Shown here one piece after another: positions 7,611 to 63,708 of a stretch of 64,000 bases of DNA; the stretch's first letter is position 1, and each line of letters starts with the position of its first letter. The stretch is from a bacterium (lineage in GTDB: Bacteria; Patescibacteriota; Saccharimonadia; CAILAD01; JADZBC01), in NCBI GenBank assembly GCA_020852295.1, contig JADZBC010000009.1, positions 286,435 through 350,434 of the forward strand, read 5' to 3'. The notes beneath the pieces were generated by a model, which was not told the DNA's origin, made no database searches, and saw nothing but the letters and a program-made list of their open reading frames with translations. A program made the position numbers and the translations under genes.

Positions 7611-8621
7611 ATGAGCGAGACTATGGATATTTTGGCAATTGGCGATGTGGTGACTGATGCGTTTATCGAGCTGCTGCCGCATGAAGCAGAGATCGATGAG
7701 TCGCCCAAGGATCACCATCCGCTCCTCTGTATGACATATGGCACCAAGATACCATTTAAGCAGGCGATCATTATCAACGCAGTGGGCAATAGCGCCAATG
7801 CCGCCGTCAGCTTCGCCAAGCTTGGTCTGAAGACTGGCTTTATTGCCAACGTTGGTGACGATCAGGTAGGGCAGGACATTATCCGTCAGCTACATCACCA
7901 AAAAGTATCGACAGAGTTTGTCCACGTCAATAAAGGCAAGGTTTCGAATTATCACTATGTGCTGTGGTATGGCGATGATCGCACAATCCTTATCAAGCAT
8001 GAAGACTACGAATACCATCTACCAAAACTGCACGGTCACCTCAGGCCAAACTGGCTGTATCTGAGCTCGGCATCAGAGTCAGCTACGCCGATGTACGATG
8101 AGCTAGCTGAGTTTCTCGAACAGAATCCTGAGGTCAAGCTAGCCTTTCAGCCAGGCACATTTCAAATGCGACTTGGCGTCGAACGACTCAAAAAACTTTA
8201 TGCCCACACTGAGCTCTTCGCGGTCAATAAAGAAGAAGCTCAGCTTGTGACGGGCAAGAAGACAGATGACATCAAGGAGCTAGCCAAGACACTTCATAGC
8301 TACGGGCCGAAGATTGTCGTAATCACTGATGGGCCAAAGGCGAGTTATGCGAGCGACGGCCAAAAGGTCTGGCATATGCCGAACTATCCTGATCCGAAGC
8401 CACCATTTGAGCGTACCGGCGCCGGGGATAGCTATACTTCGACGTTTGTTGCCTGTATCGCGAAAGGCATGTCAATCGAAGAGGCGCTTCTGTGGGCTCC
8501 GATCAATTCGATGAGTGTTGTGCAAAAGCTTGGCGCCCAGGCGGGCCTACTGGATGAAGCGGGTATCAAAGACTGGCTCAAAAAAGCTCCACAGAACTAT
8601 AAACCATCGGTAATGAACTAA
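7611..8621 (+). CDS. PfkB-family carbohydrate/nucleoside kinase (second paralogue)
   Basis: ERTGAGDSY signature; tandem with the preceding kinase gene. Confidence 0.75.
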   Translation: MSETMDILAIGDVVTDAFIELLPHEAEIDESPKDHHPLLCMTYGTKIPFKQAIIINAVGNSANAAVSFAKLGLKTGFIANVGDDQVGQDIIRQLHHQKVSTEFVHVNKGKVSNYHYVLWYGDDRTILIKHEDYEYHLPKLHGHLRPNWLYLSSASESATPMYDELAEFLEQNPEVKLAFQPGTFQMRLGVERLKKLYAHTELFAVNKEEAQLVTGKKTDDIKELAKTLHSYGPKIVVITDGPKASYASDGQKVWHMPNYPDPKPPFERTGAGDSYTSTFVACIAKGMSIEEALLWAPINSMSVVQKLGAQAGLLDEAGIKDWLKKAPQNYKPSVMN

Positions 8622-10604: not shown

Positions 10605-12590
10605 ATGAGCTTATTTAACCTCAATGCAAAATACGAGCCGTCGGGTGACCAGCCACAGGCGATTGAGAAGCTGTCAGAAGGTCTCAAGTCGGGCATGCGC
10701 GAGCAGACCCTGCTTGGTGTAACTGGTTCGGGTAAGACTTTTACCATGGCCAATCTTATCCAAAACTATGGTAAGACGACGCTGGTGCTCTCGCACAACA
10801 AGACATTGGCTGCCCAGCTCTACGGTGAGTTTAAAGAGTTTTTTCCTGATAACGCGGTGCATTACTTTGTGAGCTATTTTGATTATTATCAACCAGAAGC
10901 TTACATCCCACGCAGCGATACTTACATAGAGAAAGATAGTGACATCAATGAGGAGATCGATCGCCTGCGTCACGCAGCTACCTCGGCGCTGCTGAGTCGC
11001 AAGGATGTCATCATCGTGGCCTCGGTCAGCTGTATCTACGGTATTGGTAATGTCGATGACTACACCAGCATGACGATTGATTTGGAGGTGGGAGAGTTGC
11101 GGAAGCGCGACAAGCTTTTGCGCCAGCTCAACGATATTCAGTACGAGCGCAAAGACGTGGCATTTGAGCGCGCAACTTTTCGTGTGCGTGGAGATAGTCT
11201 GGACATCTTTCCAGCCGGCGAAGAGACCGCCTATCGCCTAGAGTTTTTTGGCGATACGCTTGAGCGTATTGTGCAGATCGACCCACTCACTGGCGAGATC
11301 AGCCGTGAACTGCAGTCGCTCAAAGTTTTTCCGGCCAAACACTACGTGACGCCACGCGAGCAGCTCGAGCGAGCCATTGCGAACATCAAGCAGGAGAGCG
11401 AAGAGCGGATAGCGTGGTTCAAGGCGCACGACAAATTACTCGAGGCCCAGCGGCTGGAGCAACGCGTCAAGTTTGATACTGAGATCATGGAGCAAACTGG
11501 CTACGTGAAGGGAATTGAGAACTATGCCCGATATCTGACTAACCGTGAGCCCGGCGAGCAGCCAGCCACTTTGATGGACTATTTCCCAGATGACTTTCTT
11601 ATGCTGATTGATGAGTCGCATATGACGGTGCCGCAGGTGCGGGGCATGTACAATGGTGACCGCGCCCGCAAAGAAATCCTGATCGATCATGGCTTTCGAT
11701 TGCCGAGTGCGCTCGACAATCGACCACTGACATTCACCGAGTTTGATCGACATATCAATCAGGTGGTTTACGTTTCTGCCACACCAAGCGAGTACGAGCT
11801 GAGTCACAGTAAGCAGGTGGTCGAGCAGATCATTCGACCGACCGGTTTACTTGATCCAGTTATTGAGGTGCGGCCGGTTGAGCATCAAGTTGATGATGTG
11901 ATAGCCGAGATTCGCGCGCGCAACGCCAAGCATCAGCGTACCCTCGTTACTACGCTGACAAAGAAAATGGCCGAAGACCTGACGGAATATCTGACCGATG
12001 TCGGCATCAAGGTGCAGTACCTGCACTCGGATGTGAATACGCTTGAGCGTAGTGATATCTTGCGCGATTTGCGAGCTGGCATCTACGACGTGGTTGTGGG
12101 CATTAACCTCTTGCGTGAAGGCTTGGATCTGCCGGAGGTTTCGCTCGTGGCGATCATCGATGCTGACAAAGAGGGTTTTCTGCGCTCGGAGTCAGCTCTG
12201 ATCCAGACGATCGGTCGCGCGGCTCGCCACCAAGAAGGCAAAGTGATCATGTATGCTAATACGGTAACCGGCTCGATGCAGCGAGCTATTGATACAACCG
12301 AGCGCCGCCGTGAAATCCAGCAGGAGTACAACACCAAGCATGGCATTACGCCACAGACGGTGCAAAAAGCCATTGCCGAGCGGATGGTTGAGGAGCGGGA
12401 GGCCGAGACGGCTGATGTTCGCGAGATTGATTTTAGTAAAGTGCCAAAAGACGAACTCAGGCAGCTTTCGCGTCAGCTCGATGAGCAGATGAAGCTGGCC
12501 GCTGCCAACCTGCAGTTTGAGAAAGCCGCCGAACTACGGGACCAAATCAGCGAGATAGCCGAGATCGTCCGCGCGAAGCGAATAAAATAA
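10605..12590 (+). CDS. uvrB: excinuclease ABC subunit B
   Basis: GVTGSGKT Walker A, helicase motifs and a C-terminal UVR domain. Confidence 0.95.
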
Positions 12591-12626: not shown

Positions 12627-13949
12627 ATGACAGACGATCAAGCAAAACGCGCAAGTGATCAGTCAAGCCCTGAGGTGAATCAGGGGGCGGCAGACCCGAC
12701 TTTAGTAGAGCACGCTGATGATATTGCGAAAATAGCGGCCGAAGCATTCGATAAGCCATCCGGTAATGCGGGTCCATCTCCGGAAATTGCACGTGATGAA
12801 CAGTTGGCCGCACGTGATCGTCGAGCGGGTGAGACGAGCGATGCTGGACCTGCTGCGGACACAGATCCTACAGCGCGACCAAATCACTTCGAAGGGTTTG
12901 ATGCGGGTAGAATATTGACCCAGGGAATTGCGGAAGAAAGTGGGCTGGCGAGGCCTGGTGAGGTAGTAGCTGCAGCAAGTGGCGGCAGTGCTAGTGCTGA
13001 GCACCACCGACCACGCGCTGAGGCTGGCCATCCTAGCCCGACCGGCCCAGAGCAACGTGGCACAGATCTGGCGACACCATCAGCCGTCGTAAAAGAAACG
13101 GGCTCAGACGAAGTAGTGCGCTCACCGATTGACGATAATCCGGAAAAAGCGGTACAGCCAGAAGCTCAAGTTGTAGCTGCTGCAGAAACACCACAGGAGC
13201 CAGAGCAAGATACTGCCTCCCCGGAAGACAGAAGATACAAGGAAGATATTGAACGTGGCGCGAAGGATCTGGAGCGCTCATTGACCGATATGATCAAGCG
13301 AGCTGAGGAATATCGCGAACAGCTTATTCAGTCGGCACACGATGCACGTACGCTTGTCCTTTCAGCGCTTGGACGTTTCGAAGGTATGAATGGCGCAAAC
13401 GAGGAACTACGCGAGAGAATAGAAGTGATTCGTCAAGATGTTGCGGAAACAGAGTCGGTATTGAACGGCGCAAAGGCTGCCTACGAACAGCAGTTAGCTG
13501 GCACGAAAAAATATGTCGCCGAAAACATTTCTAGAGAAAAGATCATCGAAGCAATCGCAGCTGACGATTCATACGCGAGCGGCCGGGTCTTGAGCGAAAC
13601 AGCGCGTACGGCTGGCGACATTAGCGAAGATTATTACCGGTCTAGTCAAAAAATTATTGATGAAATCGGTTTGTTGAGCAATGCATTTGAAACTCGAGCT
13701 CGCTCGATAGAGGATGAGGACATCAAGCGAGCTTCATACATTGTTTTGGAGTCACTAGACCAACAGCGCTTGATGACCTCTCGTCTGAGAAATGCTTTGT
13801 CTGATGTCCTGGCTGGAGAAGCACTACAGATACGTAAAGAAGCAACAAATCTGGCAGAGCTTGCTGAAAGAAAGCCCCAGAGGGATGAAAATCGAACGGT
13901 CTCTAGCTCGTCACGGTCGGTCGACGATGCGCCAGTCGACACCCTTTAG
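12627..13949 (+). CDS. hypothetical acidic protein: disordered N-terminal half, helical C-terminal half
   Basis: 440 aa with no TM helix; N-terminal ~200 aa are rich in Asp/Glu/Pro/Ala; located between uvrB and uvrA. Confidence 0.5.
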
Positions 13950-21284: not shown

Positions 21285-21371
21285 GCGGATGTGGTGAAAT
21301 TGGTATACACGCTACGTTCAGGTCGTAGTGGGGGCAACCCCGTGGAGGTTCGAGTCCTCTCATCCGCACCA
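21285..21371 (+). tRNA. tRNA-Leu(CAG), class II, CCA encoded
   Basis: Cloverleaf with a long variable arm, anticodon loop TTCAGGT, GGTTCGAGTCC T-loop; GGTATAAT -10 element upstream. Confidence 0.85.
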
Positions 21372-21376
21372 AAAAT

Positions 21377-22036
21377 ATGAAAAAAACAATTCTTTACTCT
21401 CACGGCTTTGGTGTCGAACGCGACGATCGAGGACTCTTCACTGATATTGCTGCAGCTCTACCGTCTTTTAGGCACGTGATGTTTGATTATAATCTGATTG
21501 ATGCTGAGCGACATCGACTTACGGTTCAGCCGATCGACATTCAAGCTGCACTATTGCAGAAACAATATAATGAACTGCATGAGGCAAATGAAGACGTGAC
21601 ATTAATATGCCATTCACAAGGCTGTTTGGTTGCTGCTCTCGCTCAATTGCCTCGTGTGGCGAAAACAGTTTTTATTACACCTGCACAGACGATTAACGTC
21701 GATGCGTTCCTCAAAAAATTTGTCGATAGACCCAATACCGTTATCGATCGGAACGGGGTTTCGACCTTTGGCCGCAAAGATGGCAGTACTACGATCGTAC
21801 CCAAACAGTATCTCGATAGTATTGAGCAGATAGATGTCGAGGCGGCATACCGCAACCTAGCAACGAGAACGGAGCTACTCGTTATCTCGGCGAAGGATGA
21901 CGAGGTGCTGCGTATGACAAATTTTGATTATCTCAATGATGTTGCCCGCGTCACAACTCTTGCCGGTGACCACAATTTCTCTGACGCAGAAGATCGCACG
22001 GCAATGGTCCGTATGGTCAGTGAGTTTCTTCGCTAG
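21377..22036 (+). CDS. alpha/beta-fold serine hydrolase (YdeN/RBBP9-like)
   Basis: HSQGC nucleophile elbow (GxSxG-like); 219 aa. Confidence 0.6.
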   Translation: MKKTILYSHGFGVERDDRGLFTDIAAALPSFRHVMFDYNLIDAERHRLTVQPIDIQAALLQKQYNELHEANEDVTLICHSQGCLVAALAQLPRVAKTVFITPAQTINVDAFLKKFVDRPNTVIDRNGVSTFGRKDGSTTIVPKQYLDSIEQIDVEAAYRNLATRTELLVISAKDDEVLRMTNFDYLNDVARVTTLAGDHNFSDAEDRTAMVRMVSEFLR

Positions 22037-22876
22037 CTACTGCTTGGCGTACCAGAATACAAAGCCACTATCATCTCGACGATCCCATGAGAACTGCGCG
22101 GAGAACAGCTGCCAGAAGCTGTGATATAGATTCTCGCCAGCTTTTTGGTATTCGTAGCTTTGTGCTGTGGCGTGTTCGGGGTTGTTGTTGCTTTGTGCAA
22201 GGGTGTAGCCAGCTGGAATGCCGCTGGCGACACGTACGCAGTAATCATCGCCCTTTGGTATCTCAGCACTGAACCGGCCGTCATCATTTGTATTTACATA
22301 GAAGCCATTTGACGTACAAAACTCGACTTTGGCCCCTTTGATTGGCTTGTTGTCCACCAGGACCCGACCGGTGACTGTGACGTTTGTCGCGGAAGCAGCT
22401 GGTGGAGCTGGTGTTGGTGGGGCGGGCGTAACTTCGGCTGGTGGTTCCGATCCAGGTCCCCAGCAGAAATAGCTCGCATTCCACGGTTGAGTGCCGCGGC
22501 GGGCAAAAGTACTGTAAAAGGCTTTGTCCTGAACCTCTGGCGGTGCATCCGTGGCCCGTGGATAGACCAGTGCAAGCTCTGGTCCAACCGCGCCACGCCA
22601 CGTGCCGGTATCGTATTGATAGGCCCCGGTATGATTGCTGGCATTGATGGCCTTATAGTTTGGTGTTGAGTTCGGGCCGCTACCAGATTCGCAGCCGGCA
22701 ATACGGGGACGCCAATAGTCTGGGTTGGTGCGATACACCGGTATTCCTGCCGCGAAGCTACGAAGGACATAGATGCCACCGATAGCAACAAAAACCAGCA
22801 TAAACAGTGCTACAACAGGATTGTTGAAGCGAGCGGTTGGTTTTATAAGCTTGGCTTTGTTCTTTGGGTTGGGCAT
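22037..22876 (-). CDS. membrane-anchored Rpf-like (transglycosylase-like domain) cell-wall hydrolase with a Pro-rich linker and a C-terminal carboxypeptidase-regulatory-like beta-sandwich
   Basis: N-terminal TM helix; IAGCESGSGPN...TGAYQYDTGTW resembles the Rpf domain (CE[AS]GGNW...NTGNGYYGG.QF...TW); PAPPTPAPP linker. Confidence 0.6.
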   Translation of the reverse strand: MPNPKNKAKLIKPTARFNNPVVALFMLVFVAIGGIYVLRSFAAGIPVYRTNPDYWRPRIAGCESGSGPNSTPNYKAINASNHTGAYQYDTGTWRGAVGPELALVYPRATDAPPEVQDKAFYSTFARRGTQPWNASYFCWGPGSEPPAEVTPAPPTPAPPAASATNVTVTGRVLVDNKPIKGAKVEFCTSNGFYVNTNDDGRFSAEIPKGDDYCVRVASGIPAGYTLAQSNNNPEHATAQSYEYQKAGENLYHSFWQLFSAQFSWDRRDDSGFVFWYAKQ

Positions 22877-22958
22877 ATGCTAGTAAACGATGCTTATGTT
22901 TACTATAGCGCTGTAATCTGTTGAGGTCAATTTTGCAGATTGTAATCTCGGCGTATGA

Positions 22959-24611
22959 TTGTTATGCTTTAAGGCAATGAAAGAAATAATTCGTGAACTA
23001 GGCAACCTGCTTGTTGGTGAGATAACGGCCGAAGCTGGCACTCGTGAATTTTTTTCGACCGACGGGAGTGTCTTCAAGGTTGAGCCAAGTCTTGTGATCT
23101 ATCCGCGCAATGAGTCTGATGTTGTGATAACGGTCAAATATCTTCGTAACAAAGCTGAAAATGGCGAGTATTTGCCGATCACGGCTCGCGGTAAAGGCAC
23201 CGATCAGGGCGGCGGCGCGCTTGGTACCGGTGCTTTGATGGTGTTTCCTGCACATATGAAGCGGCTTATTCATATAGACAAAGAATCCGTCACCGTTCAG
23301 CCAGGCATGATCTACTCGCATCTGGAGGGGATATTGCACTCCCATGGGCGATTTCTACCGCCGTATCCGGCCAGCGTTGATTTTGCCACAATCGGTGGTG
23401 CCATTGCCAACAACTCAGCTGGCGAGAAGACGGTCAAATATGGTTCGACGCGTGACTACGTTGGTGCACTACGAGTTGTATTGAGCAATGGGGACGTCAT
23501 CAGTACCTATCGTATGAGTAAGCGTGAGCTGGAAAAGAAAAAGATGCAGGACGATTTTGAGGGGCACATCTATCGGGCGGTGGATCAATTGATTGAGTCC
23601 AATAAGGCGCTCATTCACCAAGCTCCGCCACACGTGAGCAAGAACTCGGCAGGGTATGATCTGTGGGACGTAAAACGAAAGAATGGCAGTTTTGATCTCT
23701 CGCAATTGATCGTCGGCTCGCAGGGTACGCTTGGCGTTGTCACAGAGGCGACGCTGTTGCATGAGGCACTTAATCCACAAACAACCTTGTTGGTTGGCTT
23801 TTTTGACTCGATCGAGAAGGCGACAGAGGCAGTTGAGCGAATAATGTCGCTCAATCCAAGTGCTCTTGAAGTGGTAGACTATCATCTGCTCGATTTTCTG
23901 CGCACCCACAAACCTGAGCAGATCGAAGGTCTCGTGCCGGAGCAGCTCCCGCAAATTGCACTGTTGATTGAATTTGATGATCAAAAAGCGCGACATCAGG
24001 CCAAGAAGGCACGCAAAGTGGCCAAGCTTTTCAAGAAGTTGGCGTACGATTCGCGTTTTGCAACCGATCCCGATGAGCAGGACGCACTGTGGAAGATACG
24101 CCGTGGCGCAGCAGCCGTCATCTGGATGATCAACGGCCCGAAGAAAGCGCTGCCAATCATCGAGGATGGGGTGGTGCCGCTACATAAGATGCCAGAGTTT
24201 CTCGAGTCGGTCTATGCACTATTTCGCAAATACAAACTCGACATCGCGGTCTGGGGTCACGCCGGCGATGCCAATTTTCATCTCCAGCCGTTTATGGATC
24301 TGAGCAATATGCGTGATCGTGGTAAAGTCTTTGATCTGATGGATGATTTTTATAAACTCGTTATCCGTATGGGTGGCAGCACCTGTGGTGAGCATAACGA
24401 CGGAAGGTTACGGGCACCATATCTGAAGAAGCTATACGGAGCAGACATGTATCGCATCTTCGAGCAAGTGAAGCAGATCTTTGATCCGGCCAATATTCTC
24501 AATCCAGGGGTAAAGATCGGTGTGACCCAAGAGGATGCAGCTGTGCACTTGCGTCGAGAGTACTCCATGAAGCATTTGCACGATTTCTTACCAGGAGTGA
24601 TGCGAAAATGA
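22959..24611 (+). CDS. FAD-linked oxidase (GlcD / D-lactate dehydrogenase family)
   Basis: PCMH-type FAD-binding domain (ITARGKGTDQGGGALG) plus a C-terminal FAD-oxidase domain. Confidence 0.75.
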   Translation: MLCFKAMKEIIRELGNLLVGEITAEAGTREFFSTDGSVFKVEPSLVIYPRNESDVVITVKYLRNKAENGEYLPITARGKGTDQGGGALGTGALMVFPAHMKRLIHIDKESVTVQPGMIYSHLEGILHSHGRFLPPYPASVDFATIGGAIANNSAGEKTVKYGSTRDYVGALRVVLSNGDVISTYRMSKRELEKKKMQDDFEGHIYRAVDQLIESNKALIHQAPPHVSKNSAGYDLWDVKRKNGSFDLSQLIVGSQGTLGVVTEATLLHEALNPQTTLLVGFFDSIEKATEAVERIMSLNPSALEVVDYHLLDFLRTHKPEQIEGLVPEQLPQIALLIEFDDQKARHQAKKARKVAKLFKKLAYDSRFATDPDEQDALWKIRRGAAAVIWMINGPKKALPIIEDGVVPLHKMPEFLESVYALFRKYKLDIAVWGHAGDANFHLQPFMDLSNMRDRGKVFDLMDDFYKLVIRMGGSTCGEHNDGRLRAPYLKKLYGADMYRIFEQVKQIFDPANILNPGVKIGVTQEDAAVHLRREYSMKHLHDFLPGVMRK

Positions 24612-24934
24612 AGCAGAGTCAGACCTACATTCGATTAGCCGGCTTATTGCTTTTCTTATGGTTGCTGTATGAAACCAGTCGAGCGCAAGAGTTCGGCGTT
24701 GTCGGCCTCGGTACGCTACTGATTGTTGCGGCACTGTGGTCAGTATTTCGTGCGAAACGTATCTGGAAAGACTACCGGGCACGATATCGGGTGCGTAAGA
24801 AAAATCAGAAATCGATTTGGACAGAGCCTAAAGAAATCTATTTCTACTTGCATCTTTTTGTCGTCGTTCCGTTGATGATCGCGACCGGTTTGATTTTATT
24901 GTGGACCGCGGCATTTCTCCACTCCCAAACTTAA
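24608..24934 (+). CDS. hypothetical small membrane protein
   Basis: 108 aa with three predicted TM helices; overlaps the upstream gene's stop. Confidence 0.35.
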   Translation: MKQSQTYIRLAGLLLFLWLLYETSRAQEFGVVGLGTLLIVAALWSVFRAKRIWKDYRARYRVRKKNQKSIWTEPKEIYFYLHLFVVVPLMIATGLILLWTAAFLHSQT

Positions 24935-24987
24935 CCTAGCCAGATAGAGACTTTTTCGGTACAATATGGGCTGTTCTGTGCGGACAT

Positions 24988-25077
24988 GCGGCCGTGGTGG
25001 AACTGGTAGACACGCTAGCTTGAGGGGCTAGTGCCCGTTTTTAGGGCGTGGAAGTTCGAGTCTTCTCGGCCGCACCA
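24988..25077 (+). tRNA. tRNA-Leu(GAG), class II, CCA encoded
   Basis: Acceptor GCGGCCG/CGGCCGC; anticodon loop TTGAGGG; long variable arm. Confidence 0.8.
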
Positions 25078-25111
25078 ATTCCGTGTTTAGCGTGCTAAAT
25101 AGGGAATTGGT

Positions 25112-25660
25112 ATGAAAAAAGTGAATTCACGATTTATGATTGCCGGCCTATTGCCGCCCACTACTGCGGCAGCAGTTGAGTACACTCAGCGTCGCTATGA
25201 GACTAAAGGATGGCATATCACGCAGTTGCCCCATATTACGTTGGTCCGCCCCGGTACTGCGCTCGCCGAGGAAGCTGCGATCGTCGATCATTTTTCGGAA
25301 CTAAAACTTGCCTTGCGACCACCGAGGATTGAGTCCAATGGGATTGGAGTTTTTCTTAACGCCGCATATGCCAATGTCGTCTATCTCAAAGTTGAATTGA
25401 GCCCAGAGTTAACAGAGCTACACGGGTCCCTCAAGGCCCAGATGGACTCATGTATCGAGGACAATCAGGCTGTTGACAATTTTGTGCCACATGTGACGCT
25501 GGCGAATAACATAGCTGACAAGCAGACGGTCGATCAGATTATCGACGAAGTTGCCGACGACAATTTAGATCTACACTTCTTACTGAGGGAGGTGCACCTT
25601 TTTCGCAAATCAGACACCGACCCGCGCTGGGTGTGGCTGGCCAAGAAATCAATCGGCTGA
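25112..25660 (+). CDS. 2H phosphoesterase superfamily protein (LigT / 2'-5' RNA ligase-like)
   Basis: Two H-x-T-x motifs (PHITLV, PHVTLA) at the spacing typical of LigT. Confidence 0.6.
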   Translation: MKKVNSRFMIAGLLPPTTAAAVEYTQRRYETKGWHITQLPHITLVRPGTALAEEAAIVDHFSELKLALRPPRIESNGIGVFLNAAYANVVYLKVELSPELTELHGSLKAQMDSCIEDNQAVDNFVPHVTLANNIADKQTVDQIIDEVADDNLDLHFLLREVHLFRKSDTDPRWVWLAKKSIG

Positions 25661-26491
25661 TTGGCGTCGCGCTGCTTTAATTACATTACTCATCAGCATT
25701 ATGACCGTCGTTGGGCCGACTCCACCGGGCACTGGTGTGATGTAGCTGGCTTTGTCTTTGACCATATTGTAGTCAACGTCGCCGACGATCCGCTCACCAT
25801 CTTCATTGATGCCGACATCGATGATGGCAGCCCCCTTGCGAACCATGTCGGCCGTAACAAGTCGTGGGCTGCCGGCGGCACTGACGATGATGTCTGACTC
25901 TCGAGTGAGTGCCGCGATATCTGGAGTGCCACGGTGAGCGATGTGGACATGGGCGCCTTTACGCTTGAGCAGGCAGGCGAGCGGATAGCCAACAAGATCA
26001 CTGCGACCGATAACCGTGACGGTTTTGTCGGCGGGGTTGATGTGGTAATCACGCATAATCTTAAGTACACCACGTGGCGTAGCCGGCCAAAAGTCTGGTT
26101 TGCCTGATTCGAACCGCTCGCGATTGGCCGTGGTTAGACCATCGACGTCCTTGTGGGGTGGGATGCAGTCGATCAGGGCTTGCTTGTCGAGTGAATCAGG
26201 AATGGGAAGTTGCAGTATGATGCCGTGGATATTGGGCCGTGCGGCGACACTGTGAATCTGTGCGGCGTAGTCAGTTTGAGACTGCTGCTTGAGTGTGATC
26301 TCTTCAATCTCAATGCCTAGCTCTTCGGCGCGGCGATGCTTCATACGCACATATATGAGCGAGCGTTTTTGCGGCTCGATCATAATGACTACCAACTTTG
26401 GCACGATGCCGCGCTTTTTCAGTCTCGCTACTCGGAGTTTCAGCTTGGCGGCAAACTCATCGGCTACTTTTTTTCCATCTAGTATCTGCAT
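25649..26491 (-). CDS. folD: bifunctional methylenetetrahydrofolate dehydrogenase/cyclohydrolase
   Basis: MQILDGKKVADE start with a GGAGACAAC Shine-Dalgarno. The ORF-track N-extension would run into tRNA-Val and is rejected. Confidence 0.9.
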   Translation of the reverse strand: MQILDGKKVADEFAAKLKLRVARLKKRGIVPKLVVIMIEPQKRSLIYVRMKHRRAEELGIEIEEITLKQQSQTDYAAQIHSVAARPNIHGIILQLPIPDSLDKQALIDCIPPHKDVDGLTTANRERFESGKPDFWPATPRGVLKIMRDYHINPADKTVTVIGRSDLVGYPLACLLKRKGAHVHIAHRGTPDIAALTRESDIIVSAAGSPRLVTADMVRKGAAIIDVGINEDGERIVGDVDYNMVKDKASYITPVPGGVGPTTVIMLMSNVIKAARRQSAD

Positions 26492-26500
26492 GTTGTCTCC

Positions 26501-26567
<67 letters not shown>

Positions 26568-26577
<10 letters not shown>

Positions 26578-27059
26578 TTATTATCTAGTTTGGTGTGCCA
26601 GTAGTATCCCAATATTTTTCGTTCGCTGCCATCTTCATTGGTAATGACGATATTGTGTTCGATCGGCGTGCCGGCCTTGTAGTTATTACTAATCGCTGTT
26701 TCACCACTCGTGCAGATGCCGATGTGGGGAAAGCTGCCATTGCTAAAGTGTGCATCATCGTACACAATGACTGCCCCGGGTCGAGCTTTATCAATTTCGG
26801 TCCAACCAGATTCTTTCATGTCCGCAACCGCGCGTGGTACCGTCATGTGTACTCGCTCTATCAGGTTGGAGATGCGCAATACTGATGATACGAAGTAGGC
26901 ACAGGCTAGATTGCCGTCCTGGACGATCTCGGTTTTGACCCCATCGATATCGGCGTAATACTGACTCCAACTTTTGCTGCCAACGCTGTTTTTGGTAAAT
27001 GCCATGTAGCTATCAAAAATGCGACGCTCAACTTTTGGTTCTGTCTGCGTATTAGTCAT
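26568..27059 (-). CDS. putative papain-fold cysteine hydrolase (NlpC/P60- or CHAP-like)
   Basis: Cys in NLACAYFVSSVL and His in FPHIGICTSG at a spacing compatible with NlpC/P60 or CHAP; the last ~3 codons overlap tRNA-Val. Confidence 0.35.
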
Positions 27060-27621
27060 TGCTGCTTTCCAAAAAACGTAGCAAAACGGCGGCACTGCGG
27101 TCCTCACTCATTTTGGCAGCATCGAGGGCTAGCTTGCGCGCTTCATCACGGCTAACTGTTTGCAGGGTGATGTCTTCGCCATCTTCGAGCTGTTGTTTTT
27201 TCAGACGATCGGCCGCCACCTTGATCACAAAATAGTATAAATCCCACTCCACTGTTGCGCCGCAGACGGATTTATAAAGGAACTCAAGCTCTTCAGACGT
27301 GGCATCGATACCAGCTTCTTCCCGGAGCTCGCGAACCGCACCTGCTCGGGCGGCATCAAGCTTTTGATCGTCGGTGGGGTTCGTCGAGAGAAAATCATTG
27401 TACTCGGTGAGCTTATCGAAAACTTTGCCGCCAGGGAGGCGATAGTCGTAGCCATCGATCTCATGGCGGTGCTCACGGGTTAGTAAAATATCATCACCGA
27501 CACAGATGATAGTGCGAGTACCAGGGGCACGTCGCGCCAACTCAAATGTACGAGTACCATCTGGTGAGTACTCGACAACCTCGATGATCTTGCCTTGGTA
27601 GGTGATTTTTTCGTTTGTCAT
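27052..27621 (-). CDS. NUDIX hydrolase
   Basis: Nudix box GGKVFDKLTEY...AVRELREEAGI; start chosen at MTNEKITYQ because the longer ORF would overlap tRNA-Leu. Confidence 0.75.
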   Translation of the reverse strand: MTNEKITYQGKIIEVVEYSPDGTRTFELARRAPGTRTIICVGDDILLTREHRHEIDGYDYRLPGGKVFDKLTEYNDFLSTNPTDDQKLDAARAGAVRELREEAGIDATSEELEFLYKSVCGATVEWDLYYFVIKVAADRLKKQQLEDGEDITLQTVSRDEARKLALDAAKMSEDRSAAVLLRFLESSND

Positions 27622-27626
27622 AATTA

Positions 27627-27710
27627 TGGTACCCGGGGCGAGACTCGAACTCGCAAGCCTTGCGGCAAAGGATTTTAAGTCCTTCGTGTATACCATTCCA
27701 CCACCCGGGC
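27627..27710 (-). tRNA. tRNA-Leu(TAA), class II, CCA encoded
   Basis: Reverse complement GCCCGGGTGGTGGAATGGTA...; anticodon loop CTTAAAA; long variable arm. Confidence 0.85.
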
Positions 27711-27717
27711 TCGAATT

Positions 27718-27791
27718 TGGAGGCACCTACCGGAATTGAACCGGTGTACGCGGTTTTGCAGACCGCTGCGTAACCACTCCGCCAAGGTGCC
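27718..27791 (-). tRNA. tRNA-Cys(GCA), CCA encoded
   Basis: Reverse complement GGCACCTTGGCGGAGTGG...; anticodon loop CTGCAAA. Confidence 0.85.
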
Positions 27792-27878
27792 AGAAAGTGG
27801 ACCACTACATTATACCTGGGCACGCCACACCTGACAAAGCGTCTTGGCGGTCCGAAGTGCATATGCTACGCTGAGATC

Positions 27879-28640
27879 ATGAAAAAACTCGATCCAATTC
27901 TCAAAAACAGCTTTACCAAAAAAGTCTTGCGGGCTACAGGCTTGCGCAAGCCATTTGCCGAACAGGTCAAAACCGACCATTATCGCATGCCGATTCTAGA
28001 AGAAAACGGTGGCTTTCTGGCGCTCAACAAGTATGACGGTCCGGACATCCCAGCCAAAGAATGGGAGGATCTAGAGTATATCACCTACCCAACTGACCCA
28101 AACACGTTTTTTGCACCACTGGCTTCGGCCACTGGCGAAATCAAGATGGAAGGCTTCTGGGAAGTTGGCAAGACCGACAAAGATGGTATCTGGACTGAGA
28201 ACGCCAAGAAGGCACCACACCTCAAGAAATGGGTTGAGTCGCTTGGCGTGAACTTTGGTCGAGTCCAGCTTTTGCGCATGGAGCCAAACTCGCTCCGTGA
28301 AGCTCGTTGGGGCCTGCATCTAGATGACAATAACCGTCTCAATCCCGAAAAAACTGGCTGGGTAGTGCGTATCTGGCTCGAGCTGACCGATGACCCAAAT
28401 AGTTATATGGTCTTGCGCAAGAATGACCTCAATCGTACCGAGGAGGTTCGTTTGCCGCTGCCGAAGTTTACCCAGATGGTTGTGGACTCAGAGTATCTCT
28501 TTCATGGGGTGCACCATGGCGGCAAGAAGACGCGGTATGGCCTGATCGTGAGCGGGGAGAGCAGTCCGGCCCTCGAAAAGTGGATAAAGGCACGTCTGCC
28601 AAAAGAGCCACAAATTCGACCCAAATGGCTAGATAATTAG
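27879..28640 (+). CDS. hypothetical protein, possibly a cupin/2OG-Fe(II) oxygenase-like fold (Asp/Asn beta-hydroxylase-like)
   Basis: HLDDNN ... HGVHHGG gives an HxD...H spacing; weak assignment. Confidence 0.35.
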   Translation: MKKLDPILKNSFTKKVLRATGLRKPFAEQVKTDHYRMPILEENGGFLALNKYDGPDIPAKEWEDLEYITYPTDPNTFFAPLASATGEIKMEGFWEVGKTDKDGIWTENAKKAPHLKKWVESLGVNFGRVQLLRMEPNSLREARWGLHLDDNNRLNPEKTGWVVRIWLELTDDPNSYMVLRKNDLNRTEEVRLPLPKFTQMVVDSEYLFHGVHHGGKKTRYGLIVSGESSPALEKWIKARLPKEPQIRPKWLDN

Positions 28641-28688
28641 ATCATTTTCTGCTACCATATCGTTTGTACTTTTTAGTGTGCTTGTTGT

Positions 28689-28764
28689 GGCGCCTTAGCT
28701 CAGTTGGTAGAGCAGAGGCCTGAAGAGCCTTGTGTCGTTGGTTCGATTCCAACAGGCGCCACCA
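28689..28764 (+). tRNA. tRNA-Phe(GAA), CCA encoded
   Basis: GGCGCCTTAGCTCAGTTGGTAGAGC...; anticodon loop CTGAAGA. Confidence 0.9.
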
Positions 28765-28774
28765 AAATCATTAT

Positions 28775-28850
28775 GCGGGTGTAGCTCAGCTGATAGAGCG
28801 CTTCCTTGCCAAGGAAGAGGCCCCGGGTTTGAGTCCCGGTACCCGCACCA
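28775..28850 (+). tRNA. tRNA-Gly(GCC), CCA encoded
   Basis: GCGGGTGTAGCTCAGCTGATAGAGC...; anticodon loop TTGCCAA. Confidence 0.9.
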
Positions 28851-28865
28851 AATGTCATCACTACC

Positions 28866-28890
28866 AAAAAGACCACCAGGTCTTTTTTTG
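28866..28890 (+). terminator. rho-independent terminator after the tRNA-Phe/Gly pair
   Basis: AAAGACC-ACCA-GGTCTTT stem followed by a T-run. Confidence 0.6.
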
Positions 28891-28903
28891 TTATCCTAAA
28901 CAC

Positions 28904-29278
28904 ATGCTACGCGACAACACTGAATCATTTGCTCCAGAATTTGCCGATATATTGCTGCGCCTCGGTGTCGAAGAAGACGCCGTGACGACGTCGTTTCAGC
29001 TTCTCAAGTTTGAACGTCTTGAGCCAGATCTCTTTGTCTGGCTGCTGCGGGGAACGCACACATATCTGATGACCATTGCGGATGGGGGCTCCGACATGCC
29101 AAATAGTCAGTGGCTGGCACAATGGGCTGGAGTGGCAATCAAAGACCTGAACCAACTCACACCACAAGGCACTGGCCTGCTGCGGCTTCGTGGCATGAAA
29201 GATGGCTATGATTTTGTGCACGTCTACCAGCTGCCGGCCGGATACGAGTACAGTCCAGACTACCACGACAAAAGTTGA
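28904..29278 (+). CDS. hypothetical protein (124 aa)
   Basis: The ORF-track frame reads through tRNA-Gly and the terminator; the first ATG after the terminator (28904) is preferred. Confidence 0.35.
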   Translation: MLRDNTESFAPEFADILLRLGVEEDAVTTSFQLLKFERLEPDLFVWLLRGTHTYLMTIADGGSDMPNSQWLAQWAGVAIKDLNQLTPQGTGLLRLRGMKDGYDFVHVYQLPAGYEYSPDYHDKS

Positions 29279-29353
29279 TAGCGCTTTTTGTATAAGGAAA
29301 TGTTCTCAAGTCTTTTTGATTTTCCAGTTCATCGAAGCAGTATACTAATTAGG

Positions 29354-29965
29354 ATGACGTCACAAGATATTGATTCTCAAAATAATCATCCGGGCTCTCG
29401 TCGTAATGCTCGGCCTAAGCTATTAATTGTACTTGCGATAATATTGCTTACGGCAGGGGCGTATTTATTGTTGTTGGTACTGTCTCCCTCGTTGAAATCC
29501 TTTCTTCCCATTGGCAAGAGTTCGATCGACCTCAATCTCGCTGATGATGCGAACGACAGTCGAGATCGCATTCAGATAGAAAAAATAAATCTTGAAGTAC
29601 CATTTGGTCCGGGCGGCAATGAGCAGCTTGAAAAAGGTGCCTGGCACCGATATCCAGAAAGGGGTAATCCTGAGAAAGGAGGGAATTTTATCATCAGTGC
29701 ACACCGATTCCGAATAGGCACAACTCCAGGTCAGACCAAAAACACTTCACCTTTTTATAATATTGGGAGGCTCGCTGTCGGAGACAGTATGCGAGTCTAC
29801 TACCGAGGGAAATGGTACGACTATGTGATCACAAAGAAATATCAAGTTAAGCCAGATGCTGTCTATATAGAGGCGCCGAGCAAGGAGGCGAAGCTAACGC
29901 TATATAGCTGCACACTCGCCGGCTCAGCCGATGGTCGCGATGTTATTGAAGCCAAGCTCAAGTAG
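29354..29965 (+). CDS. sortase (transpeptidase)
   Basis: N-terminal TM anchor; catalytic His in FIISAHR, Cys in LTLYSCT (sortase TLxTC motif) and a conserved Arg downstream. Confidence 0.7.
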   Translation: MTSQDIDSQNNHPGSRRNARPKLLIVLAIILLTAGAYLLLLVLSPSLKSFLPIGKSSIDLNLADDANDSRDRIQIEKINLEVPFGPGGNEQLEKGAWHRYPERGNPEKGGNFIISAHRFRIGTTPGQTKNTSPFYNIGRLAVGDSMRVYYRGKWYDYVITKKYQVKPDAVYIEAPSKEAKLTLYSCTLAGSADGRDVIEAKLK

Positions 29966-30015
29966 CTTTACAAAATCACTGATTCCTTGTACTATTACGT
30001 AGTTATTAACGCTTT

Positions 30016-30092
<77 letters not shown>

Positions 30093-30163: not shown

Positions 30164-32533
30164 ATGGTTATTACGAACTTGATAAATAGGTACCTCATGG
30201 CTAGCGTGCTGGCCATTTTTACGCTTGCATTTTTCTACCCGAGCCTACGTGCATTACCGGTAAGCGCTGCCGATAATAATTTCGCTGACGGCATAACGGT
30301 GGACAGTACTGGCGACGGAGCGGATGCAAATATCGCTGACTCGATTTGCGATGACGGCTCCGGTAACTGTACGCTACGCGCTGCCATAGAAGAGGCCAAT
30401 GACACCCCGGGCACGCAAACTATCCGGTTTAATATTACAGGCCTAGCTGATTTTACAAACGCCGGACAGAATGGCTATGCTATTCGGCCAATAAGCGCAT
30501 TGCCGGTTATCACAGATAGTACAATTATTGACGGGTATACCCAGGCAGGAGCGACGCCAAATGCGACTGTCTCACCTCAGCCGTTTGATGCAATATTGCT
30601 TGTCGAATTGGACGGACAGAATGCAGGCGGAAATGGCATCCTCGGCGATCCCTCTAATGTTGCAGGTTTACAATTTGGCCCAGGTTCTCAGAACAGTTTA
30701 GTGCGCGGTTTGGTGATTAATGAATTTACCGGTGCCGGATTATCGGTAGGCATAGGCGCGGATAATATCGAAATATACGGCAATTATATCGGAACAGATT
30801 ATTTAGGCTTGGTGGCCGAACCAAATAACGGTCAGGGAATTACAGTCTTTGGACCCACGAGTACCACGGGTGGACCGGTGAATGGTCGTATAGGCGGCTC
30901 TGCTGCTGAAGAGCGGAATATAATTTCTGGTAACGACTCTGGATCGAATGACCCCAATCGGGTCATTGGCGTTCAGGGGATATCTATGACGAGCAGTTCG
31001 GCAGGATGGACTATCCAGGGTAACTATATTGGCTTGGGTTCGGATGGAGTGTCTAATCTCGGCAATGAGCTTGGAGGCATGACAATCGATTACGTCCAGG
31101 ATCTTTTAGTAGGTGGAGGTGGTCAGGGTGAGGGGACCGTTGTTTCGGGTAATGGTGATGGTGGAATTCAGCCAGACGGCTCCGATAACATTGTGATCCA
31201 GGGCAACTACATAGGCACTGATTACACAGGAACGAGCCCACTCCCAAACTATAGTAAGGGTATATCATTTTTGGGAACAACCAATAGCCTGGTTGGTGGT
31301 GACAATAGTGGGGAGGGTAATATTATTGCAAATGCAGGAAATACATCACCAGGTATATTTTTAAATGATGGCAATGGGGTTGCAGGCCCCCTCGGCGACT
31401 CTCAAGACATTGCGATACTCGGCAACTCGATATACGACAATTCCGACATCGGTATTGATTTAGGCTTTGACGGCGTCACGTCAAATGATACAAATGACAG
31501 TGACGTCGGATCCAACAACTCCATGAACTTTCCGGTATACACTCGCGTTGCTGAGTCTGGTGGCGATACTGTTGTTGATTATCGGCTGGATGTACCGGCT
31601 GGAGATTATCGTATAGAGTTTTTCAGTAATTTGATCGCCGACCCATCAGGATATGGTGAGGGTGAGATCTTTCTGGGTTACCAAAATATTAGCCACCCCG
31701 GCGGGGGGAATGTAAATTTCTCTCACACCCTGATCGCTACGACCGGCATTACTAATCTGGCGATGACCACGACGCAGCGAAACGTCGCCACAGCTTCTGG
31801 GTTTGGTGCAACTAGTGAATTTTCTAGTAATGGCACCTCTCAGCCAGTAGCCGACTTCGGGGTAGAGAAGGTGTTGTTAAATCCCCAGGATGTCGCGATT
31901 GGCGCTACGATTGGCTATCGGGTGACGGTGCGCAACGTTGTCGGCGATCCGATTGATTTGGCTGCATTTGATGGGGGAGTATTTGGCAGCACAAACTTGC
32001 TGACCGATATCATGTCGCCGGACATCACTTATGCTGGGGGTGTGAGTGATGCAAATATTGATTGTCAATCTGCCGGTCCTGGCTCGGCTAGCATTTTTGG
32101 CCCTGCTATGGCAAACCATTCTGAATTTGAAATTCTCCTCTGCTCATGGGTCGGCGCAAGTCATGTGCTGAGTCCCGGAGAATCTTTTAGCTTTACCTAT
32201 AACGTCACCGTGCAGCCGAACAGCGACTTAATCTTCGATAACTATGCAATAATTCCACCAACACCGTCCGACGACCCTGATACAGCTGCGCTTGGGGCAA
32301 TCTATCTATCGGGCAGTGATATCATTGATAGCTTGCTCACAAATGGCACGATCAATAATTTCGCAGCCAGTCATTACCCTATTGTCGTTCAGTCAACAGA
32401 GTTGAATGGCGTAACGCTGCCTTCGACTGGGGAAAACGATAGTCTTTATCGACTACTGGCGTACAGTGCTGTTGGATTAGGGATGCTGCTACTGGCTATA
32501 TTTTGCCTTGACAAGCACAAGCGTCATCGCTAA
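30164..32533 (+). CDS. LPXTG-anchored surface protein with right-handed beta-helix (PbH1-like) repeats and a DUF11/CARDB-like domain
   Basis: Signal peptide (alternative start MASVLA at 30197); repeated NxxIxGNYIGTDYxG units; C-terminal LPSTG, then a hydrophobic stretch and KHKRHR, which is a canonical sortase sorting signal. Confidence 0.75.
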   Translation: MVITNLINRYLMASVLAIFTLAFFYPSLRALPVSAADNNFADGITVDSTGDGADANIADSICDDGSGNCTLRAAIEEANDTPGTQTIRFNITGLADFTNAGQNGYAIRPISALPVITDSTIIDGYTQAGATPNATVSPQPFDAILLVELDGQNAGGNGILGDPSNVAGLQFGPGSQNSLVRGLVINEFTGAGLSVGIGADNIEIYGNYIGTDYLGLVAEPNNGQGITVFGPTSTTGGPVNGRIGGSAAEERNIISGNDSGSNDPNRVIGVQGISMTSSSAGWTIQGNYIGLGSDGVSNLGNELGGMTIDYVQDLLVGGGGQGEGTVVSGNGDGGIQPDGSDNIVIQGNYIGTDYTGTSPLPNYSKGISFLGTTNSLVGGDNSGEGNIIANAGNTSPGIFLNDGNGVAGPLGDSQDIAILGNSIYDNSDIGIDLGFDGVTSNDTNDSDVGSNNSMNFPVYTRVAESGGDTVVDYRLDVPAGDYRIEFFSNLIADPSGYGEGEIFLGYQNISHPGGGNVNFSHTLIATTGITNLAMTTTQRNVATASGFGATSEFSSNGTSQPVADFGVEKVLLNPQDVAIGATIGYRVTVRNVVGDPIDLAAFDGGVFGSTNLLTDIMSPDITYAGGVSDANIDCQSAGPGSASIFGPAMANHSEFEILLCSWVGASHVLSPGESFSFTYNVTVQPNSDLIFDNYAIIPPTPSDDPDTAALGAIYLSGSDIIDSLLTNGTINNFAASHYPIVVQSTELNGVTLPSTGENDSLYRLLAYSAVGLGMLLLAIFCLDKHKRHR

Positions 32534-49385: not shown

Positions 49386-49741
49386 AGACAACCACACAAA
49401 TTGGTCGACAGGCCGAAGCATTGGCGGCACGCTATCTGCAAAGTCACGGCTATCAGATCTGTGCTCGCAACGTCCGCACGCGGTATTACGAGATTGACCT
49501 TATTGCACGTACCGCAGAGGATATCGTGTTTGTTGAGGTGAAATACCGGCGATCGCCCTGGTATGGCGGCGGTGAGTCATCCGTTGACGCGCGAAAAGCC
49601 GAGCGGCTTATTCGGGCAGCACTCGCTTGGTTAGCCGAGCAACAGACTTATCAAAACCTTCAGCCAAGGATCGATGTAATCACAGTGACGGGTGAGCACA
49701 ACGTTATCCAGCACTACCAGAACGCAATAAATCTTGACTAA
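49382..49741 (+). CDS. yraN: YraN family (UPF0102) endonuclease
   Basis: 119 aa; RYYEIDLIA...FVEVKYR motif; overlaps the rnhB stop. Confidence 0.8.
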   Translation: MKTTTQIGRQAEALAARYLQSHGYQICARNVRTRYYEIDLIARTAEDIVFVEVKYRRSPWYGGGESSVDARKAERLIRAALAWLAEQQTYQNLQPRIDVITVTGEHNVIQHYQNAINLD

Positions 49742-49772
49742 AAACATAATAGGTGTGATAATAGTTCACCCC

Positions 49773-49845
49773 GGGGGCGTACCTCAATTGGCAGAGCGGT
49801 TGACTTAAACTCAGCTGGTTACGGGTTCGAGTCCCGTCGCCTCCA
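49773..49845 (+). tRNA. atypical tRNA-like gene: 73-nt class I cloverleaf, anticodon UAA (Leu-decoding), A73 discriminator, no encoded CCA
   Basis: Acceptor GGGGGCG/CGCCTCC (one G-U pair), 3-bp D-stem, anticodon stem GTTGA/TCAGC with loop CTTAAAC, 5-nt variable loop, T-arm ACGGG-TTCGAGT-CCCGT; a GC hairpin follows at 49853-49875. Confidence 0.5.
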
Positions 49846-49883
49846 CGTATTGCGCCCTGGTTTCGGCCAGGGTGCAAACCCCC

Positions 49884-49912
49884 TTGACTCACGCGTTAGG
49901 GGACTGTAATAT
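49884..49912 (+). promoter_or_regulatory. sigma70-like promoter TTGACT-17nt-TAATAT upstream of nusA
   Basis: Seen in sequence; a possible 6-codon leader ORF (MKKSVQ) and a small hairpin plus T-run lie between the promoter and nusA. Confidence 0.4.
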
Positions 49913-49994
49913 TGGAGACATACAGCATATCAGTTAGTCATGAAGAAGTCGGTTCAATGAAGCCGGCCTTTTTGTTTCAAAGAAAGGAAATACT

Positions 49995-63621: not shown

Positions 63622-63708
63622 GCGGATGTGGTGGAACTGGTAGACACGCTAGCCTTAGGAGCTAGTGGGGTTAAACCCGTGAAGGTTCGAGTCCTTTCAT
63701 CCGCACCA
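63622..63708 (+). tRNA. tRNA-Leu(TAG), class II, CCA encoded
   Basis: GCGGATGTGGTGGAACTGGTAGACACG...; anticodon loop CTTAGGA; long variable arm. Confidence 0.85.

Follow-up and report, generated by a model that had tools for sequence, protein, structure and literature searches.

The tRNA gene considered here lies in a stretch of 64,000 nucleotides (nt; hereafter the window, with a GC content of 50%) of contig JADZBC010000009.1, from a bacterium of the Saccharimonadia (Patescibacteriota). Its NusA homologues bear the name Candidatus Saccharibacteria (TM7), the group to which we assign the window. It stands between yraN and nusA in the gene order dnaE, rplS, rnhB, yraN, tRNA, nusA, clpC-like, radA and PIN/TRAM, an order that is syntenic in relatives. 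ARAGORN calls the tRNA at 49773–49846 on the forward strand, reads its anticodon as taa and names it "tRNA-Leu", and the Rfam model RF00005 matches 49773–49845 over its full length (model positions 1–71) with 59.1 bits against a threshold of 29 (E = 3e-10 in the window). Our analyses of the gene, its surroundings and its homologues suggest a different name. The body of the molecule appears to carry the acceptor identity of an alanine tRNA, joined to the leucine anticodon UAA in a lineage-specific orphan gene. A preliminary description of this DNA had listed an unusual or orphan tRNA, or a changed identity, among its possible explanations, and with the alanine elements G3:U70 and A73 set against a leucine anticodon this option seems essentially right.

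The gene encodes a class-I tRNA. Its 7-bp acceptor stem (GGGGGCG/CGCCUCC) is followed by U8 and A9, a D arm (CCUC-AAUUGGCA-GAGC), G26, an anticodon arm (GUUGA-CUUAAAC-UCAGC, with the anticodon at 49806–49808), a variable loop of 5 nt (UGGUU), a T arm (ACGGG-UUCGAGU-CCCGU) and the discriminator A73 at 49845. The T arm, the 7-bp acceptor stem, A73, the loop CTTAAAC and the UAA anticodon named in the preliminary description can all be read directly in the sequence, and the ARAGORN run proposed there returned the same anticodon. Its clean cloverleaf held in part: the tRNA is a real class-I molecule of 73 nt, but its D stem contains a C10.C25 mismatch (49782/49797) that is private to this strain. 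With the 10:25 pair broken, the core nucleotides are nevertheless complete (U8, A14, G18G19, U33, purine 37 and the T loop UUCGA). The missing CCA was likewise described correctly, since CGU comes after A73 while all nine remaining tRNA genes of the window encode CCA (9/9), leaving this gene as the only one of ten without it. A transfer-messenger RNA (tmRNA) or its tRNA-like domain was ruled out by the complete cloverleaf, the lack of a tmRNA call by ARAGORN and a score of 17 bits against a threshold of 47 for the permuted tmRNA model.

Which amino acid would such a molecule carry? The G3:U70 pair is the alanine identity element, used by alanyl-tRNA synthetase (AlaRS) irrespective of the anticodon (PMC11415595, PMC7609411, PMC10543346), and it suffices for recognition by this enzyme (as cited in PMC11415595 and PMC7609411). 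In the window gene the pair is formed by 49775 and 49842, within the acceptor context G1-C72, G2-C71, G3.U70, G4-C69 and A73, and it is unchanged in every allele and homologue. Both secondary AlaRS determinants, A73 and G2:C71, are present; the minor determinant G20 is replaced by C20, as it is in a canonical tRNA-Ala (L053). Because G3:U70 and A73 stand beside a UAA anticodon, we read the gene as an identity mismatch and not as a class-I tRNA-Leu. Neither this pair nor the tRNA's own promoter-like site is mentioned in the preliminary description.

Comparison with other tRNAs points in the same direction. Without the anticodon arm, the body is identical at 51 of 54 positions to two canonical tRNA-Ala genes of other phyla; about 34 of these positions were fixed by the search pattern, and 17 of the roughly 20 free ones agree too. 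When one genome from each of 185,579 species was scanned for an identical acceptor stem and an identical T arm around a free middle, four matches were returned, namely three canonical tRNA-Ala genes (Actinomycetota, Planctomycetota and Epsilonproteobacteria; anticodons UGC/GGC) and one UAA hybrid. Among viral tRNAs with the same acceptor design or T arm, 35 of 42 are tRNA-Ala with UGC, GGC or CGC anticodons. The combination of G3:U70 and A73 was then counted in about 1,900 distinct tRNAs that had been collected: it occurs in 142 of the 158 tRNAs with an alanine anticodon and in about 5 of about 1,700 unselected non-alanine tRNAs (about 0.3%), the deliberately retrieved hybrids having been set aside from the latter count. 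The gene is nonetheless no canonical tRNA-Ala isoacceptor, its anticodon being UAA and not NGC, nor does it resemble a bacterial tRNA-Leu, with 5 nt in its variable loop as against long arms in the window's four tRNA-Leu genes. These four class-II genes also have D arms unlike that of the present gene (4-bp stem GCUC/GAGC). The leucine profile is outside the five best isotype models for the window copy, its common allele (allele A, below) and a homologue (L054), whereas a class-II control reaches 53 bits. The anticodon arm is like that of neither tRNA-Ala nor tRNA-Leu; generic arms of the Gln, Asn, Lys or Thr type come closest to it.

The genetic code of the organism is unchanged, and UUA and UUG still mean leucine. 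In seven conserved genes compared with relatives, window UUA and UUG codons align with leucine at 70/84 and 93/112 positions, respectively (163/196, 83%), matching the 81–84% observed for CUN codons, and with alanine at 1 of 196. A reassignment of UUR codons (UUA and UUG) to alanine was ruled out by this agreement with CUN and by the presence of a class-II tRNA-Leu(UAA), which ARAGORN places on the minus strand exactly where it had been reported (Table 1).

The tRNA comes with putative expression signals of its own. Ten nt upstream of it ends a promoter-like site that matches the consensus at 10 of 12 positions and has TG before the -10 element; four promoter-like sites were observed in the region against 0.7 expected from shuffles. 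The site is kept in all 12 population contigs with the tRNA and is missing from tRNA-free relatives, and from the consensus match we infer that it acts as the promoter of the tRNA. The hairpin on the other side, for which a 9-bp GC stem had been given, is longer than that (Table 1). It folds with -21.9 kcal/mol (z = -4.88), none of 200 shuffles folds equally well, and it accompanies the tRNA in all population contigs and is not found in tRNA-free relatives; it probably marks where the tRNA transcript ends on its 3' side, or else acts as a signal for processing or termination. Together these elements make up an insert of about 145 nt between two CTTGACT motifs (49733–49739 and 49883–49889). In a relative that lacks the tRNA (L001), about 14 unrelated bases lie between the corresponding motifs. 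The nusA promoter proposed earlier was also located, as a promoter-like site.

Table 1. Features of the tRNA cassette, the adjoining nusA promoter region and the resident leucine tRNA (positions in the window).
Feature	Position	Strand	Basis or remark
Class-I tRNA gene, 73 nt, anticodon UAA, alanine identity elements	49773..49845	+	ARAGORN, Rfam
Promoter-like site of the tRNA: -35 TTGACT (49734-49739), 17-nt spacer, TG-extended -10 GATAAT (49757-49762)	49734..49762	+	
Hairpin, 12-bp stem, UUCG loop, 4 nt 3' of the tRNA, no U run after it	49850..49877	+	
Lineage-specific insert, approximate extent (promoter core, tRNA, hairpin)	49740..49882	+	Alignments to tRNA-free L001
nusA promoter-like site TTGACT-17-TAATAT, outside the insert	49884..49912	+	Consensus; region conserved in L001
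Class-II tRNA-Leu(UAA), CCA encoded	27627..27710	-	ARAGORN, Rfam; resident UUA/UUG decoder

The tRNA cassette is missing from the yraN–nusA slot of relatives at 91, 89, 86, 83 and 73% NusA identity. The spacer measures 253 nt in the window and about 133 nt in three other contigs (L001, L002 and L005); the relatives with 91, 83 and 73% NusA identity have the 133-nt spacer and no tRNA, and in those with 89 and 86% (L009 3524–3820; L010 1776–2072) the slot, which is 49742–49994 in the window, is filled by an open reading frame (ORF) of 98 amino acids (aa) for which we found no Pfam, PHROG or PADLOC match. The spacer is a variable cargo slot, and the tRNA, inserted in this lineage together with putative expression signals of its own, is an acquired cassette. 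The conservation in related genomes that the preliminary description proposed to look for is present among population contigs and in none of the relatives outside the species. In annotated collections of phages and plasmids, only generic tRNA similarity and no copy of the cassette was found. Alignments show that the nusA promoter and leader are unchanged in the relatives without the tRNA, which implies that the tRNA is not part of nusA regulation, and the earlier suggestion of a regulatory RNA finds no support as far as nusA is concerned.

The cassette was found in 12 contigs from several projects, nine of them with an allele A and three with an allele B. Allele A shares the UAA arm with the window copy but has G10, so that its D stem (GCUC/GAGC) and its cloverleaf as a whole are perfect. 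Seven allele A contigs are 99.9% identical to the window and keep G10, so that C10 is a private and recent change, which has probably left the window copy weaker than the common allele A; a contig that is 2.8% diverged (L006) carries allele A unchanged. Allele B (L007, L008 and L185), whose strains are 2.7% diverged overall, is unaltered in its acceptor stem, its D and variable loops and its T arm and has a D stem GCGC/GAGC with a G12.A23 mismatch, A26 and the arm GUCGG-AGUUAUG-UCCGA, which folds into a 6-bp helix with a 6-nt loop or into 5 bp with an 8-nt loop. It is labelled tRNA-?(Stop|Ile) by ARAGORN and scores 47 bits with Rfam. Between the alleles, 10 of 19 arm positions differ as against 1–3% in the flanks, making the arm more than 15-fold more diverged, and the differences span position 12 to 2 nt past the 3' end. 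Both alleles occur together in one sample (L182 versus L008 and L185).

The simplest reading of this pattern would be replacement with a related gene. An origin by local hypermutation, or by a mechanism of the diversity-generating retroelement (DGR) type, is unlikely, given that the changes are not adenine-specific, the helix is preserved and the span fits replacement. The window holds no silent donor cassette, neither as a second copy of the T arm or acceptor stem nor as a copy of the allele B arm, and no phage donor of the anticodon arms was found, with no matches for the allele A arm and two chance matches inside coding sequence for that of allele B. Judging by the G10C change and the aberrant allele B, attenuation or retargeting of the gene seems to be frequent, as might be expected of a costly mistranslating tRNA; decay would account for them equally well.

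Genes of the same design are found in another phylum. One, in a Dehalococcoidia metagenome-assembled genome (L054, DAOUFR010000011), has the same acceptor stem and T arm, the loop CUUAAAA, no CCA and an Rfam score of 73 bits, and a second Dehalococcoidia-type copy (L178) came from a single metagenome scan; in the retrieval of both, the sequence of the loop had been left free. The Saccharibacteria and Dehalococcoidia genes share the conserved loop CUUAAA, and between them the pairs 13:22, 29:41 and 30:40 have changed on both sides and still pair, as has 31:39 in L178. The two Dehalococcoidia tRNAs are 94% identical, compared with 79% over the surrounding 900 nt. Compensatory stem changes around a conserved loop argue for selection on a working anticodon arm.

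The Dehalococcoidia genes sit in a block consisting of a hairpin, the tRNA, a trailer and an IS5-family transposase, which is 75–88% conserved and starts exactly at a perfect hairpin (L054 84–1285; L178; L196, L199 1017–2211). The slot holds the alanine-bodied UAA tRNA in L054 and L178 and a Gln-like UUG tRNA in L196, L198 and L199; the latter has the unusual C33 and C54, G3-C70, an encoded CCA, 40–51 bits with Rfam and no ARAGORN call. This is a second case of differing tRNAs inside conserved flanks. Judged by its best inverted repeats, the IS5-family element has its left end 48 nt downstream of the tRNA. We rejected the tRNA as cargo of this element on account of eight further transposase copies (74–90% identity) without an adjoining tRNA.

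Phage contigs contain related molecules. One (L057) encodes an alanine-bodied UAA tRNA without CCA, two others (L058 and L163) have alanine bodies with the 6-nt loops UUAAAA or UUCAAA, and two (L011, which equals L179, and L012) have exactly the acceptor stem and T arm of the window gene with degenerate anticodon arms. In the isolated Aeromonas phage Akh-2 (MK318083 64060–64131; L189 1502–1573) and related phages, a tRNA with G3:U70 and A73 has the anticodon CUA, and judging by these elements it is most likely an alanine-inserting amber suppressor. In a broad viral survey, the tRNAs with G3:U70 and a non-G position 35 were mainly ordinary phage tRNA-Ala with 4-nt variable loops. The window gene would belong to a loose set of alanine-bodied tRNAs with non-alanine anticodons in phages and distant bacteria.

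Several of these phage records deserve a remark of their own. The Aeromonas CUA tRNA is labelled inconsistently across records (tRNA-TERM, tRNA-Pyl or tRNA-OTHER). G3:U70/A73 tRNAs with UCU (Arg AGA) and GUC (Asp) anticodons in L059 (112–182), L098 (10305–10376) and L075 are candidates for further hybrid tRNAs of alanine identity. Contig L058, with 32 tRNA genes, has in the regions 7684–7844 and 11224–11300 two adjoining tRNA-like genes with 6-nt loops, one of them alanine-bodied (loop UUAAAA) and located beside a normal tRNA-Ala, as well as an ochre suppressor tRNA with the anticodon UUA; L163, which is related to L058, has the same body with the loop UUCAAA.

Taking these observations together, we propose, at somewhat better than even confidence, that the gene is a horizontally acquired tRNA of hybrid identity, in which a tRNA-Ala body and a leucine anticodon are combined into a potentially mistranslating molecule. 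In this model, the sigma-70-type promoter of the cassette, recognized by its consensus match, would give rise to a short transcript ending at the hairpin. RNase P and a 3' nuclease would trim this transcript, and CCA would be added enzymatically, because none is encoded. By the established identity rules, AlaRS would then charge the tRNA with alanine via G3:U70, A73 and G2:C71, and EF-Tu would be expected to deliver it normally, because the T arm is identical to that of canonical tRNA-Ala. At the ribosome, U34-A35-A36 would compete with the class-II tRNA-Leu(UAA) in reading UUA and UUG, leading to a partial substitution of alanine for leucine.

A number of observations weigh against this proposal. 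Position 38 of the tRNA is C38 and not A38; an A36-A37-A38 context is typical of UNN readers modified with N6-isopentenyladenosine (i6A37), and C38 removes this context and may weaken decoding. Efficient alanine insertion driven from a near-consensus promoter should be costly, yet there is no depletion of UUR codons relative to the closest tRNA-free relative (24% of leucine codons versus 27%), and switches between codon classes in this comparison are symmetric (40 versus 42). The broken 10:25 pair of the window copy, and the D-stem mismatch and 6- or 8-nt loop of allele B, are compatible with decay. Conservation of the acceptor stem and T arm within the family is in part a product of retrieval patterns that fixed these two elements, and isotype models based only on sequence cannot separate Ala from Asn or Lys: after removal of pattern-matching alanine tRNAs as a safeguard against circularity, the profile scores are 36.9 for Asn, 33.1 for Lys and 30.8 for Ala, within about 6 bits of one another.

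Could the gene instead be an acquired tRNA that is now decaying, a small and recent pseudogene never charged or used? We consider this unlikely, although it accommodates a good part of the data: the C10.C25 mismatch that the 99.9%-identical sister contigs lack, the G12.A23 mismatch and non-canonical anticodon loop of allele B, the missing CCA in a window where nine other tRNAs have it, the absence of the gene from every relative beyond the species level and the lack of a response in codon usage. It does not readily explain why promoter and hairpin are intact in 12/12 population contigs, why allele A is a perfect cloverleaf in nine contigs including one lineage diverged by 2.8%, or why the Dehalococcoidia homologues show compensatory stem changes around a conserved loop in a tRNA that has diverged far less (94% identity) than its flanks (79%). 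Nor is the perfect 6-bp helix of the allele B arm what random decay would leave. Less probable still, in our judgement, is a tRNA-shaped RNA with a non-ribosomal role, such as a decoy for an anticodon-loop nuclease or for another tRNA-targeting toxin or defence system, or an alanine donor for a tRNA-dependent transferase. Such a role predicts a constrained acceptor stem and T arm and a free or diversifying anticodon arm, in line with the invariance of the former and the 10/19 arm differences between alleles against 1–3% in the flanks, with the relatives in phage tRNA arrays whose loops have 6 or 8 nt or whose arms are broken (L011, L012, L058, L104 and L163) and with the different tRNAs that the Dehalococcoidia slot holds within conserved flanks. 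The insert has no partner enzyme, however, and in the gene survey of the window nothing of the Fem, MprF or nuclease type turned up in its vicinity. With G18G19, T loop and T stem all fully canonical, there is no hint that EF-Tu or the ribosome is avoided, and the loop CUUAAA, conserved across diverged stems, points to a role of the anticodon itself.

A true class-I tRNA-Leu, charged by leucyl-tRNA synthetase (LeuRS) and supplementing the class-II tRNA-Leu(UAA), seems very improbable. The UAA anticodon and A73 are what such a tRNA would have; A73 is the major LeuRS determinant in Escherichia coli, where the enzyme does not strictly need a long variable arm. Against it stand the G3:U70 pair, which suffices for AlaRS, the 51/54 agreement of the body with canonical tRNA-Ala genes, a D arm unlike those of the four class-II leucine tRNAs and the rank of the leucine profile for the window copy, allele A and L054. 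The mitochondrial-like class-I tRNA-Leu of the preliminary description fares no better, with an acceptor stem and T arm identical to bacterial tRNA-Ala and no trace of the class-II leucine D-arm design. Hardly credible, finally, is an integration-site remnant or a cis-regulatory tRNA-like element of the nusA operon. The tRNA does lie directly upstream of nusA, as metY does in E. coli; the yraN–nusA spacer is variable, with the 98-aa ORF in L009 and L010, and in Dehalococcoidia 48 nt separate the homologue from an IS5-family element at its left end. But the gene is complete and has its own promoter-like site, the nusA promoter and leader are the same in tRNA-free relatives, and the eight other IS5-family transposase copies have no adjoining tRNA. 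The remnant, which the preliminary description had also considered, is further contradicted by the syntenic housekeeping flanks and by the lack, throughout the 64 kb, of an integrase and of a second copy of the tRNA 3' half within 3 mismatches. The rest of the window consists of housekeeping genes, and the same survey found in it no Fem- or MprF-type user of Ala-tRNA, no cca and no rnz gene.

How does the proposed hybrid tRNA relate to known systems? It shares G1-C72, G2-C71, G3.U70, G4-C69, A73, the T arm and most of the D arm with canonical bacterial tRNA-Ala, from which it differs by UAA in place of NGC, an unrelated anticodon stem, the missing CCA, its strain- or species-specific occurrence and its location in an inserted cassette. 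A further parallel is offered by the allo-tRNAs, natural 8/4 or 9/3 tRNAs of serine or alanine identity with leucine, arginine or stop anticodons (Mukai et al. 2017, PMC5389517); natural allo-tRNAs with G3:U70 are charged with alanine in E. coli, and some allo-tRNAs insert serine or alanine there (PMC5389517). Like the window gene, allo-tRNAs combine identity elements with a mismatched anticodon, have G3:U70 in some cases, include UAA (Leu) and are distributed sporadically among bacteria and phages; they have, however, a 12-bp acceptor/T branch (8/4 or 9/3) and a long variable arm, whereas the window gene is a 7/5 class-I cloverleaf. Leucine codons are also read by G3:U70 tRNAs in the case of the mitochondrial (mt) tRNA-Ala(UAG) of Ashbya gossypii and of Pachysolen, where CUG encodes alanine (PMC7609411, PMC4937558). 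In those systems the codon has been reassigned and the competing tRNA-Leu lost; in the window UUA and UUG stay leucine and the class-II tRNA-Leu(UAA) is present. In yeast, tRNA-Ala with leucine anticodons mis-incorporates alanine at leucine codons (PMC10543346).

Among chromosomal bacterial hybrid tRNAs predicted to mistranslate sense codons, Streptomyces tRNA-ProA/ProX (PMC11415595) is comparable, but it has a dedicated ProRSx and inserts proline, whereas the window gene has no partner gene and the housekeeping AlaRS would suffice. The "tRNA-Sup-CTA" of Aeromonas phage Akh-2 shares with the window gene the G3:U70/A73 acceptor and a non-alanine anticodon, and its anticodon stem (GCGGA/UUCGC) differs from that of L054 at 1 of 14 unmasked positions; unlike the window gene, it has an amber anticodon (CUA) and an encoded CCA and is part of a phage tRNA array. 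The window gene would work like natural hybrid-identity tRNAs, yet it is not a member of the allo-tRNA, mt/yeast tRNA-Ala or ProA families. In the literature that we searched, no bacterial tRNA-Ala(UAA) of canonical shape is described, although coverage was incomplete and an earlier description is possible.

What would be the relevance of such a gene? Natural tRNAs with a mismatch between identity and anticodon are the raw material of code change and of deliberate mistranslation, and the bacterial cases described so far are either oddly shaped (allo-tRNAs, tRNA-Sec-like) or depend on a synthetase of their own (tRNA-ProA with ProRSx). The window gene has an ordinary shape and should be charged by the housekeeping AlaRS; it addresses a common pair of leucine codons in an episymbiont with a tiny genome and is polymorphic in a natural population, and related genes occur in phages and in another phylum. 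If active, it would place alanine at leucine codons and provide a natural system for studying proteome-wide tolerance to leucine-to-alanine substitution, a way to follow the spread of such genes and their later inactivation or retargeting, and compact parts for code engineering. It also carries a warning for annotation, in that names based on the anticodon, such as the "tRNA-Leu" of ARAGORN, mislabel genes of this kind. More speculatively, and with considerable doubt, one may envisage a family of self-expressed cassettes that moves horizontally among phages, episymbiotic Saccharibacteria and Chloroflexi, in which an alanine-accepting stem and T arm stay fixed while the anticodon arm can be exchanged (UAA, UAU-like, CUA, UCU and odd-sized loops). 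It might serve deliberate and tunable leucine-to-alanine or other-to-alanine recoding, or act as a weapon or counter-weapon between phage and host or symbiont and host, and new specificities would be generated by arm swapping of the kind seen in the Dehalococcoidia slot and between the two alleles.

Some features of the window lie outside this argument. Four of its ORFs have no Pfam match at E<=1e-5 (12627–13949, 30164–32533, 22037–22876 on the minus strand and 27879–28640, encoding 440, 789, 279 and 253 aa, respectively). Eight tRNA genes are grouped within 9 kb, the tRNA regions of the window being 21285–30092 and 63622–63708. Class-II tRNA-Leu is represented in the window by four isoacceptors (CAG, GAG, UAA and UAG), all with CCA, and a gene of the 2'-5' RNA ligase (LigT) family lies inside the tRNA cluster (25112–25660). 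The 5' leader of nusA (49915–49994) contains a hairpin resembling an intrinsic terminator close upstream of the start codon (49948–49967; GUCGGUUCAAUGAAGCCGGC, followed by CUUUUUGUUU), which is nearly perfectly conserved in the tRNA-free relative with 91% NusA identity; it looks like a transcription attenuator and could possibly mediate autoregulation by NusA. The ORF for ribosomal protein L19 (48107–48721) encodes 204 aa, of which only residues 6–115 are covered by the Pfam L19 domain, so that about 90 aa extend beyond the domain at the C terminus. Gene callers divide this region of L006 between two ORFs, 100 and 92 aa long.

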